Positions 45,009 through 64,000 are shown, counted from the stretch's first letter. The stretch: 64,000 nucleotides of DNA from Escherichia coli (GCF_024298765.1 NZ_CP101210.1); one strand, 5' to 3'. Notes: generated from the letters alone by a model not told the origin. Numbers and translations are program-made.

Positions 45009-45020
45009 AATTCATATAAA

Positions 45021-45049
45021 CGGACCTCCACGGAGGTCCGTTTTTCGTT
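45021..45049 (+). terminator. Rho-independent terminator after tRNA-Phe
   Basis: CGGACCTCC-ACGG-AGGTCCG hairpin followed by TTTTTCGTTTT. Confidence 0.75.
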
Positions 45050-45205
45050 TTAGGACGCCACGATTTAAGCGTCCTGCCGCCAAATCAATTCTACCGAACT
45101 CAACCAGACTCCCCCCACATCAACCCCATTGTGTGGGTATAATTGCGGGTATACCCCAGTTCGACAGAATTTGTACCCTCTTTAACGCATTCAGAAGGCT
45201 GAACT

Positions 45206-46468
45206 ATGGCACTGACTGACGCAAAAATCCGGGCTGCAAAGCACACTGACAAGGCTTATAAACTCACTGACGGGGCTGGCATGTTCCTGCTGGTACATCC
45301 TAATGGTTCCCGTTACTGGCGTCTCCGTTATCGTATTCTGGGTAAGGAGAAGACTCTGGCACTTGGTGTGTATCCAGAAGTTTCTCTCTCCGAAGCTCGT
45401 ACAAAACGGGATGAGGCCCGAAAACTGATTTCAGAGGGGATTGACCCTTGCGAACAGAAAAGAGTTAAAAAAGTAGTCCCTGATTTACAGCTCTCTTTTG
45501 AACATATTGCACGACGCTGGCATGCCAGTAATAAACAATGGGCACAATCACACAGCGATAAAGTACTCAAAAGCCTCGAGACACACGTTTTCCCCTTTAT
45601 CGGCAACCGGGATATCACAACACTCAATACCCCGGACCTGCTTATCCCTGTTCGTGCTGCAGAAGCAAAACAAATTTATGAAATCGCCAGTCGTCTGCAG
45701 CAAAGAATATCTGCTGTAATGCGTTACGCCGTACAGTCTGGCATCATCAGATATAACCCGGCTCTGGATATGGCTGGTGCATTGACCACGGTAAAACGCC
45801 AGCATCGCCCCGCTCTGAATCTTTCACGTCTGCCTGAACTTCTGTCGCGTATTAACAGTTATAAAGGTCAGCCTGTCACCCGGCTTGCTGTTATGCTGAA
45901 TTTACTGGTTTTTATTCGCTCCAGTGAACTCAGATATGCCCGCTGGGCTGAAATTGATATTGACAATTCAATGTGGACTATTCCAGCCGAACGCAAACCT
46001 CTGCCAGGGGTAAAATTCTCACACCGGGGCTCCAAGATGCGAACACCACATCTTGTGCCACTCAGCAAACAGGCTGTAGCCATACTGACAGAACTTCAGA
46101 CATGGGCTGGTGAAAATGGTCTGATCTTTACGGGAGCACATGACCCGCGTAAACCAATCAGTGAAAATACCGTAAATAAGGCCCTCAGAGTGATGGGGTA
46201 TGACACAACCAAGGAAGTCTGTGGCCATGGATTCCGGGCGATGGCGTGCAGTGCATTGATTGAATCAGGTTTGTGGTCCCGCGATGCTGTGGAACGTCAG
46301 ATGAGCCATCAGGAGCGTAATGGTGTACGTGCTGCGTATATCCATAAAGCAGAACATCTGGAAGAACGTCGACTGATGCTACAGTGGTGGGCAGATTTTC
46401 TGGATGCGAACAGAGATAAGGGTATCAGCCCGTTTGAATATGCAAAGATTAACAATCCATTAAAATAG
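45206..46468 (+). CDS. P4-family tyrosine integrase (island integrase adjacent to tRNA-Phe)
   Basis: ORF track 420 aa; N-terminus MALTDAKIRAAKHTDKAYKLTDGAGMFLLVHPNGSRYWRLRYR typical of P4/CP4-type integrases; C-terminal catalytic region with HGFR and Tyr; located directly 3' of a tRNA. Confidence 0.9.
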   Translation: MALTDAKIRAAKHTDKAYKLTDGAGMFLLVHPNGSRYWRLRYRILGKEKTLALGVYPEVSLSEARTKRDEARKLISEGIDPCEQKRVKKVVPDLQLSFEHIARRWHASNKQWAQSHSDKVLKSLETHVFPFIGNRDITTLNTPDLLIPVRAAEAKQIYEIASRLQQRISAVMRYAVQSGIIRYNPALDMAGALTTVKRQHRPALNLSRLPELLSRINSYKGQPVTRLAVMLNLLVFIRSSELRYARWAEIDIDNSMWTIPAERKPLPGVKFSHRGSKMRTPHLVPLSKQAVAILTELQTWAGENGLIFTGAHDPRKPISENTVNKALRVMGYDTTKEVCGHGFRAMACSALIESGLWSRDAVERQMSHQERNGVRAAYIHKAEHLEERRLMLQWWADFLDANRDKGISPFEYAKINNPLK

Positions 46469-46470
46469 TA

Positions 46471-46515
46471 AGCAGTCCGGGCTGATTGCCCGGACTGCTT
46501 TAACTGATTATTTTT
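46471..46515 (+). terminator. Candidate terminator after integrase gene
   Basis: AGCAGTCCGGGC-TGATT-GCCCGGACTGCT 12-bp stem followed by T-rich tract. Confidence 0.55.
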
Positions 46516-46843
46516 CTTTGTAAATGATGACGAAGATTGATGTTCTGGCAAGTTACTCCGGCTTCCATTAAAGTCCCTTCGTCATGTTCTTCAGGCTATT
46601 TATGACTGTGATTAGCACCAGGAATATCTGGTTTCCATGAGAGCAGGTAATACCCCCCGGTGTTTTCGGCTGTTCTGGTATCCTTGTCCAACGCAGGCAG
46701 TCATTATAAACGGTAAAAAATGTATTCACTGTTATGAAATCAATAGTCCTGACGTACTGTTGAATGTGCTTGCGTTCTGAACCTTGTACAACCAGTACAT
46801 TTGATACCGAATTATAAACAAAACATTGCATCCAACTTTTTCA

Positions 46844-46866
46844 ATATGGACAATAGTTGTCCATAT
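46844..46866. promoter_or_regulatory. Perfect 10-3-10 inverted repeat, candidate operator upstream of helicase-nuclease gene
   Basis: ATATGGACAA-TAG-TTGTCCATAT, about 55 bp upstream of ATG at 46920. Confidence 0.4.
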
Positions 46867-61696: not shown

Positions 61697-61837
61697 GTTG
61701 GAGTCATTACCTCCTCCCGAACTCAAAGCTATCATACAGATAATTACTGGTTAACCCTATATAGGGCATTTTAAAGTGTTGTGATCTTACCCAGCAATAG
61801 TGGACACGCGGCTAAGTGAGTAAACTCTCAGTCAGAG

Positions 61838-62143
61838 GTGACTCACAAGACAAAACAGTTTCAACCAGTAAAAAAACGTAAACAGCATTCGCCTGAATTT
61901 CTCAGTGAAGCCCTGAAACTTGCTGAACGCATCGGTGTTGCTGCCGCAGCCCGTGAACTCAGCCTGTATGAATCACAGCTCTATGCGTGGCGCAGCAAAC
62001 TGCAGCAACAAATGAGTTCGTCAGAGCGTGAAAGTGAACTGGCCGCTGAAAATGCCCGCCTGAAGCGGCAACTGGCGGAGCAGGCAGAGGAACTGGCTAT
62101 CCTCCAAAAGGCCGCGACATACTTTGCGAATCGTCTGAAATGA
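61838..62143 (+). CDS. IS3 OrfA (HTH protein); canonical ATG appears replaced, GTG start only
   Basis: ORF track 101 aa ..[57 protein letters not shown]. Confidence 0.65.
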
Positions 62144-63006
62144 AGTATGTCTTTATTGAAAAACATCAGGCTGAGTTCAGCATCAAAGCAATGTGCCGCG
62201 TGCTCCGGGTGGCCCGCAGCGGCTGGTATACGTGGTGTCAGCGGCGGACAAGGATAAGCACGCGTCAGCAGTTCCGCCAACACTGCGACAGCGTTGTCCT
62301 CGCGGCTTTTACCCGGTCAAAACAGCGTTACGGTGCCCCACGCCTGACGGATGAACTGCGTGCTCAGGGTTACCCCTTTAACGTAAAAACCGTGGCGGCA
62401 AGCCTGCGCCGTCAGGGACTGAGGGCAAAGGCCTCCCGGAAGTTCAGCCCGGTCAGCTACCGCGCACACGGCCTGCCTGTGTCAGAAAATCTGTTGGAGC
62501 AGGATTTTTACGCCAGTGGCCCGAACCAGAAGTGGGCAGGAGACATCACGTACTTACGTACAGATGAAGGCTGGCTGTATCTGGCAGTGGTCATTGACCT
62601 GTGGTCACGTGCCGTTATTGGCTGGTCAATGTCGCCACGCATGACGGCGCAACTGGCCTGCGATGCCCTGCAGATGGCGCTGTGGCGGCGTAAGAGGCCC
62701 CGGAACGTTATCGTTCACACGGACCGTGGAGGCCAGTACTGTTCAGCAGATTATCAGGCGCAACTGAAGCGGCATAATCTGCGTGGAAGTATGAGCGCAA
62801 AAGGTTGCTGCTACGATAATGCCTGCGTGGAAAGCTTCTTTCATTCGCTGAAAGTGGAATGTATCCATGGAGAACACTTTATCAGCCGGGAAATAATGCG
62901 GGCAACGGTGTTTAATTATATCGAATGTGATTACAATCGGTGGCGGCGGCACAGTTGGTGTGGCGGCCTCAGTCCGGAACAATTTGAAAACCAGAACCTC
63001 GCTTAG
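62140..63006 (+). CDS. IS3 OrfB (DDE transposase catalytic part)
   Basis: ORF track 288 aa with rve-domain motifs (..[39 protein letters not shown]..). Confidence 0.85.
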
Positions 63007-63019
63007 GCCTGTGTCCATA

Positions 63020-63685
63020 TTACGTGGGTAGGATCACTAAGCCAGGAATTAAGTCATTTAAAGATATTTCAAATTCACTGGCAATCGTATCTAATCCTTC
63101 CTTATCAATAGATTCAAGCCATAAATTATAATCAATAGGAAGAAGCAACGGATGAGTAAAGTTCAATCTATTTACTAAAGATGATTTAGTATACTCATCA
63201 TTACTTAGCTCTCCAATAAATTCATTATTTATAGAAACAGCATAGTTCTTTATATATGCTGCTCTGTGCAATTGTGACCATGCGATTTTAAACTCTACAT
63301 AAACCTTTTCAGTTTCATCTGCAATGTCTTTCATTTTTATAAAATGAATATCGAAAATATCACCAAGTTCTTCTAAATATGTTTTATATTCTACACCTAT
63401 TGTTTGTTCAGGATCGAAACCGATACCAATAGTAATTACATTATTCAGATCCCCATTATGGACTAGAGATCTAAATCCATCTATGCGCCTGTTCCCCATA
63501 GCTTCTAAATATATAGGATCACACTGCTCACGGTCTAATATTTGTTGAAGATAAAATAATGCAATTAAAATAGTAGTCTTGCCCGCGCTGTTTGGCCCCA
63601 ATAGTAATGTTACAGGTGCAAAATCAATTTCCTGCCGCTCTCTAACAGATCTGAAATTTTCAAGTACAAGTTTAGTTAATTTCAT
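63020..63685 (-). CDS. ABC-type (AAA_15/AAA_21-like) ATPase, N-terminal 221 aa; reading frame terminated inside IS3 right end (likely truncated)
   Basis: MKLTKLVLENFRSVRERQEIDFAPVTLLLGPNSAGKTT Walker A; stop codon lies within the IS3 terminal sequence; AT-rich. Confidence 0.6.
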   Translation of the reverse strand: MKLTKLVLENFRSVRERQEIDFAPVTLLLGPNSAGKTTILIALFYLQQILDREQCDPIYLEAMGNRRIDGFRSLVHNGDLNNVITIGIGFDPEQTIGVEYKTYLEELGDIFDIHFIKMKDIADETEKVYVEFKIAWSQLHRAAYIKNYAVSINNEFIGELSNDEYTKSSLVNRLNFTHPLLLPIDYNLWLESIDKEGLDTIASEFEISLNDLIPGLVILPT

Positions 63686-63693
63686 AATGAACC

Positions 63694-64000
63694 TTACATG
63701 AAATATTTATTCGATAGGTTTGATGCTAAAAGTTGAAGTTGCATTGCGCTTTTATCATAAATGCTTAGTCCTTTTTTTATTTTTTTATAAATAATCTCAT
63801 ACTCATCTTGTAGATGCTTAGGTGGGATTAATATCTCTATATTCTGCAATTCCTGTGCATTAATATTAGCCATGCCAACAATACTTTTACACATATTCAT
63901 CAATGTGATTTTGCCATGGATGGAATTAAGATACCCTGAAATATAGTAGTTATTTCCGATAGAATTAGGTCTAACGCGGATTAAATATCCAGCAAATGCC
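63694..64000 (-). CDS. Type I restriction-modification specificity-subunit-like (HsdS-like) gene, 3' portion; continues beyond window
   Basis: Minus-strand frame open to the window edge (..GYLIRVRPNSIGNNYYISGYLNSIHGKITL MNMCKSIVGMANINAQELQNIEILIPPKHLQDEYEIIYKKIKKGLSIYDKS..); ILIPP..Q..EI motif and coiled C-terminal tail resemble HsdS; stop 9 bp before ATPase start. Confidence 0.45.
   Translation of the reverse strand, partial: AFAGYLIRVRPNSIGNNYYISGYLNSIHGKITLMNMCKSIVGMANINAQELQNIEILIPPKHLQDEYEIIYKKIKKGLSIYDKSAMQLQLLASNLSNKYFM

Follow-up and report, generated by a model that had tools for sequence, protein, structure and literature searches.

A mosaic, partly decayed island, very probably acquired horizontally, at the 3′ end of pheU in Escherichia coli

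What occupies the 19 kb directly 3′ of a phenylalanine tRNA gene in Escherichia coli NZ_CP101210.1, and how did it come to be there? The DNA analysed here (the window) is a stretch of 64,000 nt from this genome, and the region under study, positions 45009–64000, was compared with a set of 5426 complete E. coli genomes. The region is very probably the tRNA-proximal 19 kb of a large, mosaic and partly decayed island that was acquired horizontally at the 3′ end of pheU. Islands of this class have already been described (GI-pheV/GI-pheU, PAI-CFT073-pheU), and the finding is an ordinary one for the tRNA-Phe loci of E. coli.

ARAGORN finds four tRNA genes in the window, of which tRNA-Phe(GAA) is the relevant one. 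The gene order upstream of it, dcuA–cutA–dsbD–yjdC (dicD), identifies it as the pheU copy. The features at the junction between tRNA and island, including the left and right attachment sites (attL and attR) where they are known, are the following:

44933–45008, plus strand: tRNA-Phe(GAA), pheU copy, the integration target (ARAGORN; Rfam tRNA, 68.3 bits; dsbD–yjdC upstream).
44986–45008, plus strand: attL core, the 23-bp 3′ end of the tRNA, TTCGATTCCGAGTCCGGGCACCA (a copy lies at the far end of related islands; repeats in PMC11537424, Table 1).
45009–45205, plus strand: left arm of the island, made up of a terminator-like hairpin (45020–45046) and the region upstream of the integrase (reading of the sequence; K-12 alignment; sequence after attR in GF60).
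45206–46468, plus strand: P4-type tyrosine integrase (intP4), 420 aa, intact (Pfam Arm-DNA-bind_3, Phage_int_M and Phage_integrase; NCBIfam PRK09692, 250 bits).

The E. coli core gene order ends at the 3′ end of this tRNA. From rnr to pheU, positions 1–45008 of the window are colinear with E. coli 14EC020 at the same coordinates, and the 4.3 kb ending at tRNA-Phe is found in 5423 of the 5426 genomes; thus, the core stops at the tRNA, and by the direct-repeat convention the island begins at 45009. The integrase gene starts 198 nt 3′ of the tRNA in the same orientation, and the R, HxxR and Y motifs can be seen in its translation. An earlier note on this DNA had ended the core at yjdC/tRNA-Phe and had put a P4-family integrase next to the tRNA, and both proposals hold. 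The note had also described the integrase as following the terminator of the tRNA. This part needs correction: the hairpin at 45020–45046 recurs after attR in GF60, and by the direct-repeat convention the supposed tRNA terminator is borne by the island. A search of the window allowing up to 3–4 mismatches or edits returned no copy of the tRNA 3′ end other than the tRNA itself. The island therefore runs past the end of the window, with its distal repeat outside, as the note had anticipated. An Rfam scan of 44000–64000 gave no match except the tRNA.

The note had further expected synteny with K-12 to break right after pheU, where K-12 continues toward cadC. K-12 does lack the cargo and does continue to cadC, but the break is not at the tRNA: megablast identity with the window extends to 45122, and the two sequences can be aligned to about 45175. 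This alignment past the tRNA arises because an earlier element of this family has left a relic in K-12. In the pheU–cadC interval of K-12, an integrase fragment of 160 nt accompanies ~170 bp from the left end of an island (extracted locus 10011–10367), so that pheU of K-12, judged by its sequence, reads as such a relic and not as an empty site. The left-arm sequence to ~45175, found 3′ of pheU in K-12, is also found 3′ of attR in GF60, where the hairpin terminator, K-12-type sequence, the integrase fragment and cadC follow attR directly (extracted locus 18958–19308). In GF60, the present island was therefore inserted in front of the older relic.

Base composition, which the note had proposed as a check, sets the region apart from the core. 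The GC content is 0.486 in the island versus 0.521 in the core, and the tetranucleotide distance exceeds a z of 2 in 10/19 compositional windows of the island versus 0/44 of the core. Within the island, a phosphatase gene (phoX) and the insertion sequence (IS) elements are GC-rich, and the restriction–modification (R–M) end is very AT-rich (0.325 in 63001–64000). Two low-GC spots in the core, 23001–24000 (0.434) and 33001–34000 (0.410), correspond to yjeM and epmB–yjeJ by the colinear 14EC020 annotation; they are conserved core, not islands.

The distribution of the region is narrow. Far from recurring in most E. coli, the same content is absent from K-12 and is present at a coverage of at least 80% in 33 of the 5426 genomes. 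A full-length match to the 19 kb occurs in one genome only, XB2, at 99.7% identity and at yqgA–pheV. None of the 5426 genomes has pheU plus the whole 19 kb, and the distal end is therefore inferred from XB2, GF60 and ACN002. The junction itself is much more widespread: yjdC–pheU–int with an integrase of this type is found in 1313 genomes (24%).

In XB2, 58 differences separate the island from that in the window, 23 of them in a patch of the integrase gene, 31 in IS1 and 4 across the remaining ~18 kb. Given this near-identity at pheV, essentially one DNA occupies either of two identical tRNA-Phe genes. XB2 and about 25 other genomes have the same island at pheV; in eight genomes, it lies at pheU up to 60541 (the boundary of the IS element ISEc8), with flank and island 99.4–99.6% identical over 20.5 kb. 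The far end can be seen in two relatives. The XB2 island ends after 71.6 kb in an exact copy of the 23-bp tRNA 3′ end, and the pheU island of GF60 ends after 67.8 kb in a 22-bp copy without one G, TTCGATTCCGAGTCCGG-CACCA. A 22-bp attR like that of GF60 is given for many GI-pheV islands (PMC11537424). At their distal end, the islands of relatives contain AlpA, inovirus Gp2-like and CP4-type yee-module genes, the AlpA homologues lying far inside. Beyond its attR, XB2 carries a 330-aa integrase in the opposite orientation and unrelated to the first, together with a CBASS-like SAVED-domain protein and the pseudogene of an inverse autotransporter (extracted locus 1–6508); this DNA looks like a tandem second element.

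Other genomes show how variable the occupants of pheU are. ACN002 has the right-hand part of the island at pheU, with the stretch from mkoC (the gene next to int) to ISEc8 replaced by ISVsa5 and aac(3). Its mkoC is down to the first 62 bases through ISVsa5 and the aminoglycoside-resistance gene aac(3) (extracted locus 6023–8864); in this strain, the same island has thus also acquired a resistance gene. The core flank of 14EC020 is 99.8% identical to that of the window, yet the integrase allele and the cargo of this strain differ. Among further pheU occupants whose integrases are related, some have a TPR protein where the window has MkoC, or the effectors espL2/nleB, and one keeps the MkoC head and then continues with dptF.

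The integrase gene shows signs of exchange. The 23 differences from XB2 fall within 45334–45818, a patch that is diverged from the XB2/GF60 allele, and their spacing is mostly in multiples of three; the patch looks like gene conversion from another intP4 allele. Over 45009–46981, ACN002 and the window also differ at 23 positions. No excisionase or AlpA open reading frame (ORF) was found between int and mkoC. Downstream of int, the region contains the following features, in which every gene type named in the earlier note (a helicase-nuclease, a phosphoethanolamine (PEtN) transferase, an outer-membrane protein (OMP), PhoX, IS elements and an AT-rich, restriction-like end) is present, the IS elements being IS66, IS1 and IS3:

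46920–50435, plus strand: mkoC, Mokosh type II single-gene anti-phage system (predicted), 1171 aa, intact (PADLOC MkoC; Pfam AAA_11, AAA_12 and PLDc_2).
50544–52043, minus strand: PEtN transferase, CptA/EptA-related, 499 aa (NCBIfam CptA subfamily, 106.7 bits, with scores under every curated cut-off and weak matches to the EptA and MCR models; PGAP name in XB2).
52225–52965, minus strand: small outer-membrane beta-barrel protein, 246 aa (Pfam OMP_b-brl, 7.6e-22; NCBIfam adhesin Adr subfamily, 97.8 bits, below cut-off).
53765–54196, minus strand: iron ABC transporter permease pseudogene fragment, between the OMP gene and phoX (PGAP on the 99.7%-identical XB2 copy, offset 30008).
54292–56271, minus strand: PhoX-family alkaline phosphatase, 659 aa (Pfam PhoX PF05787, 554 bits, 7e-166).
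56998–58161, plus strand: IS3-family transposase fragments, cut by the ISEc8 insertion (NCBIfam transpos_IS3, 151 bits; pseudogene annotation in XB2).
58162–60541, minus strand: ISEc8 (IS66 family; tnpA, tnpB and tnpC) with a frameshifted tnpC (NCBIfam IS66 transposase, TnpB and TnpA; “frameshifted” note in XB2).
60588–60943, plus strand: helix-turn-helix transposase-accessory ORF fragment, cut by IS1 (NCBIfam IS66 TnpA/IS3 OrfA-like; the IS1 left inverted repeat overlaps the ORF end).
60944–61711, plus strand: IS1, 768 bp (23-nt terminal inverted repeats; NCBIfam transpos_IS1).
61782–63036, plus strand: IS3 inserted in the ATPase gene (terminal repeats TGATCTTACCC... and ...GGGTAGGATCA; NCBIfam transpos_IS3, 339 bits).
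63037–63685, minus strand: ABC-type ATPase, N-terminal 216 codons, inactivated by IS3 (PADLOC matches to the N-terminal third only).
63694–64000, minus strand: 3′ part of hsdS, the last 307 bases of the window (NCBIfam type I specificity subunit, weak; XB2 and ACN002 annotation).

The helicase-nuclease gene can be named more closely than before. PADLOC matches it to MkoC with 1694 bits, aligning residues 1–1169 to profile positions 1–1135/1136. The protein combines a superfamily 1 Upf1-like (COG1112) helicase with a C-terminal PLD nuclease, and its translation has a Walker A motif and the HKD motif HSKIVIGDD, the ATP-binding and PLD active-site residues being intact. Among solved structures, the helicase cores of Upf1, IGHMBP2 and DNA2 come nearest to it. 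Mutations of the ATP-binding site and of the PLD site abolish defence by Mokosh type II (Millman et al., bioRxiv 10.1101/2022.05.11.491447). The gene at 46920–50435 shares with that system its single-gene form, N-terminal helicase, C-terminal PLD nuclease and full-length profile match (10.1101/2022.05.11.491447); the architecture is that of Mokosh type II as in Millman et al., and mkoC is a predicted defence gene. It is carried by 888/5426 genomes (16%), chromosomally in every case, and the int–mkoC head also occurs in ST131, strain 536 and O104:H4 (mkoC of the latter being 98.5% identical). A 2025 preprint on END nucleases that names Mokosh was set aside, as it deals with an island of another organism.

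In 2017.17.03CC and 14EC020, the position of mkoC is taken by a 327–347 aa TPR/hypothetical protein and a 76-aa ORF. By analogy with the hotspots of P4 satellites, the interval from int to the PEtN-transferase/OMP pair might be a cassette-exchange slot for anti-phage genes, which we regard as unlikely. PADLOC had no match for the other occupants of this int-proximal position (the 2017.17.03CC and 14EC020 proteins) and lends the slot reading no support, and the idea stays unsupported. Were the slot dedicated to defence, the 327–347 aa TPR/hypothetical and 76-aa occupants would be new defence genes; were the reading true, the PEtN-transferase/OMP pair would be a conserved island backbone of unknown role.

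The genes that follow mkoC are of several kinds. The PEtN transferase gene has ~91% DNA identity to a gene of K-12-type strains (~1.2 kb matched), and the PEtN-transferase/OMP pair recurs in more than 3000 genomes, often beside integrases. In MSHS 133 (17890–18055) and MRY15-117 (6724–6908; extracted loci), what comes after the OMP gene is the 3′ end of a further integrase gene, ~78% identical to 46292–46452 of the window, and then unrelated cargo (dptF, or an ATPase with type I R–M). This arrangement suggests two tandem islands fused by deletion; in the window, there is no integrase remnant after the OMP gene. PhoX has an N-terminus with the twin-arginine signal motif SRRRLLQAG. The block from mkoC to PhoX is present at a coverage of at least 80% in 46 of the 5426 genomes (0.85%).

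An IS zone spans 56998–63036. Within the IS3-family debris at its start, the transpos_IS3 match (57611–58165) covers profile positions 73–259 only, and the stretch 57315–57357 forms a near-perfect inverted repeat of 18 nt around a 7-nt spacer. In ISEc8, tnpC is replaced by two overlapping ORFs. One end of the element was found at 58162, with the terminal GTAAGCG; its second terminal inverted repeat was not found, and the boundary is placed at 60541 because homology to GF60-type pheU islands ends there. The insB frame of IS1 has an internal stop (~61484), as in the ACN002 annotation, and the differences from XB2 are clustered in 61300–61564 (31 in all). From these features, the IS1 copy is probably defective and has probably swapped sequence with another IS1.

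The AT-rich end is restriction-like, as the earlier note had it, in that hsdS is present; the 221-aa ATPase ORF there is a fragment of a 540-aa gene truncated by IS3. The match to the uninterrupted gene begins at 63037. Its intact form, 540 aa in MRY15-117, scores 137.6 bits to PDC-M55A, which makes the ATPase a candidate PDC-M55A/NsnB/AriA-like defence protein. In MRY15-117, the 540-aa ATPase is accompanied by a 298-aa partner, and the two are embedded upstream of hsdS (extracted locus 7131–9649). PADLOC gave no match for the 298-aa partner in MRY15-117; the two genes may together form a candidate defence system carried along by a type I R–M operon. Past hsdS, XB2 and ACN002 continue with hsdM, hsdR, cdiI and cdiA. 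By this comparison, a type I R–M operon (hsdS–hsdM–hsdR) probably starts at the end of the window.

How could this DNA have come to lie at pheU? The P4-type integrase encoded beside the tRNA would have acted on a circular element, recombining its 23-bp core with the tRNA-Phe 3′ end, which is identical to it. This would have rebuilt an intact tRNA at attL and left a partial copy of 22–23 bp at attR, expected for the island of the window about 50 kb or more past the window end. This mechanism is modelled on the established behaviour of P4-type integrases and on PMC11537424. Since pheU and pheV are identical genes, the island can be at pheU or at pheV in different strains. The cargo would be accretive, with mkoC beside int, then the PEtN-transferase/OMP pair, PhoX, the IS zone and the type I R–M operon; insertions of ISEc8, IS1 and IS3 would have brought unrelated modules together and knocked out genes. 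Later accretion and rearrangement through IS elements are suggested by the ISEc8 boundary at 60541 and by the truncated genes. Neither the window nor the full XB2 and GF60 islands, as annotated, contain genes for transfer, packaging or satellite functions, which makes the element non-autonomous; the island is probably largely fixed.

Some points weigh against such an acquisition. The attR lies outside the window, and the flanking repeat and the size of the island are inferred from relatives alone; there is no excisionase near int. The occurrence of this integrase type at pheU in 24% of genomes, together with the K-12 relic, may mean that part of the head is old in the species and not a recent gain. 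Moreover, homologous import of the whole locus through its flanks would look no different from site-specific integration. In the case of import, the pheU locus, island included, would have been brought in by conjugation or transduction followed by homologous recombination in the flanking core, the integrase being a passenger relic. Such an import is possible, if rather doubtful. It would suit the eight genomes that share the pheU flank as well as the island at 99.4–99.6% over 20.5 kb, a window that has neither excisionase nor transfer genes, and the recombinant patches in the integrase and IS1, which show that homologous exchange acts on the island. However, the pheV copies (XB2 and about 25 others) need at least one site-specific event or recombination between the tRNA loci, and the intact integrase and the exact 23-bp repeat of XB2 suit site-specific integration. 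The two routes are not mutually exclusive.

Two further explanations dispense with an integrated, non-autonomous island. If the element were autonomous (a P4-like satellite, a prophage or an integrative conjugative element), the P4-type integrase and the AlpA, inovirus Gp2-like and CP4-type yee-module genes in the distal part of relatives would be in keeping with it. The window and the annotated islands of XB2 and GF60 nevertheless have no primase, capsid-redirection, packaging, structural, relaxase or type IV secretion genes, and IS decay is heavy; this explanation is very improbable. A P4-like phage satellite was rejected because neither an alpha primase/helicase nor psu/delta/sid or cos is found among the ORFs and annotations of the window and the XB2 and GF60 islands, the integrase alone being P4-type. 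An integrative conjugative element was rejected because relaxase, coupling protein and type IV secretion genes are missing from the window and from the same annotated islands. Alternatively, the region could be ancestral E. coli DNA lost by K-12 and most strains. K-12 does keep ~170 bp of the left end and an integrase fragment at pheU, and the integrase type is found there in 24% of genomes; by contrast, the cargo occurs in <1% of genomes, its GC and tetranucleotide composition are atypical, and other pheU occupants hold unrelated cargo (espL2/nleB, dptF). In addition, other strains have the same DNA at the other tRNA gene, pheV, and in GF60 the K-12-type relic has been displaced 3′ of attR, which shows a later insertion into a site that held the relic. 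Differential loss is thus extremely improbable, and the pheV location and the order of attR and relic in GF60 effectively refute it. A horizontally acquired island at the 3′ end of pheU remains the preferred reading.

The GI-pheV/GI-pheU islands provide the closest comparison; they are described with several intP4 types and a 23-bp attR (PMC11537424). Like them, the island of the window starts at the tRNA-Phe 3′ end, with an integrase directly 3′ in the same orientation (PMC11537424), and its relatives have a 22–23 bp attR, TTCGATTCCGAGTCCGG(G)CACCA, and a mosaic, IS-rich content of 50–110 kb with a yee/CP4-type distal module. A “putative DNA helicase” is found beside int in the intP4.5 type (PMC11537424); the integrase of the window is likened to the intP4 class as a whole and not to one of the five alleles of that study. 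The differences are that the copy in the window is at pheU, not pheV, and that the combination of mkoC, PEtN transferase, OMP and PhoX with R–M/cdi genes is rare (33/5426, with one full-length match).

The pheU island of CFT073, which we take to be PAI-CFT073-pheU of uropathogenic E. coli, has the same yjdC–pheU–int–mkoC head, 96.1% identical over 3.66 kb. In contrast to the window, an IS3-family element interrupts the CFT073 mkoC at codon 583, and an Old-like nuclease and ibrA/ibrB-type genes come next; its other cargo is unrelated to that of the window. P4-like satellites carry defence hotspots. The likeness of the window to such P4/tRNA defence islands consists in a P4-type integrase at a tRNA with an adjoining defence gene, and in an R–M operon and a candidate ATPase further in; unlike them, it has no P4 satellite genes, and most of its cargo is not related to defence. 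tRNA loci are hotspots for defence-carrying elements in E. coli (PMC10121019).

The significance of these results beyond annotation is small, and nothing in them is unexpected for E. coli tRNA-Phe loci. The pheU island of this strain is of a type known from extra-intestinal and avian E. coli. It holds an intact, predicted anti-phage system (Mokosh II), a candidate system that has been inactivated and probably a type I R–M operon, and so bears on phage susceptibility and strain typing. The island also offers a clean example of one island at pheU or pheV, of a newer island pushing an older integrase relic toward cadC, and of IS elements as the junctions between island modules.

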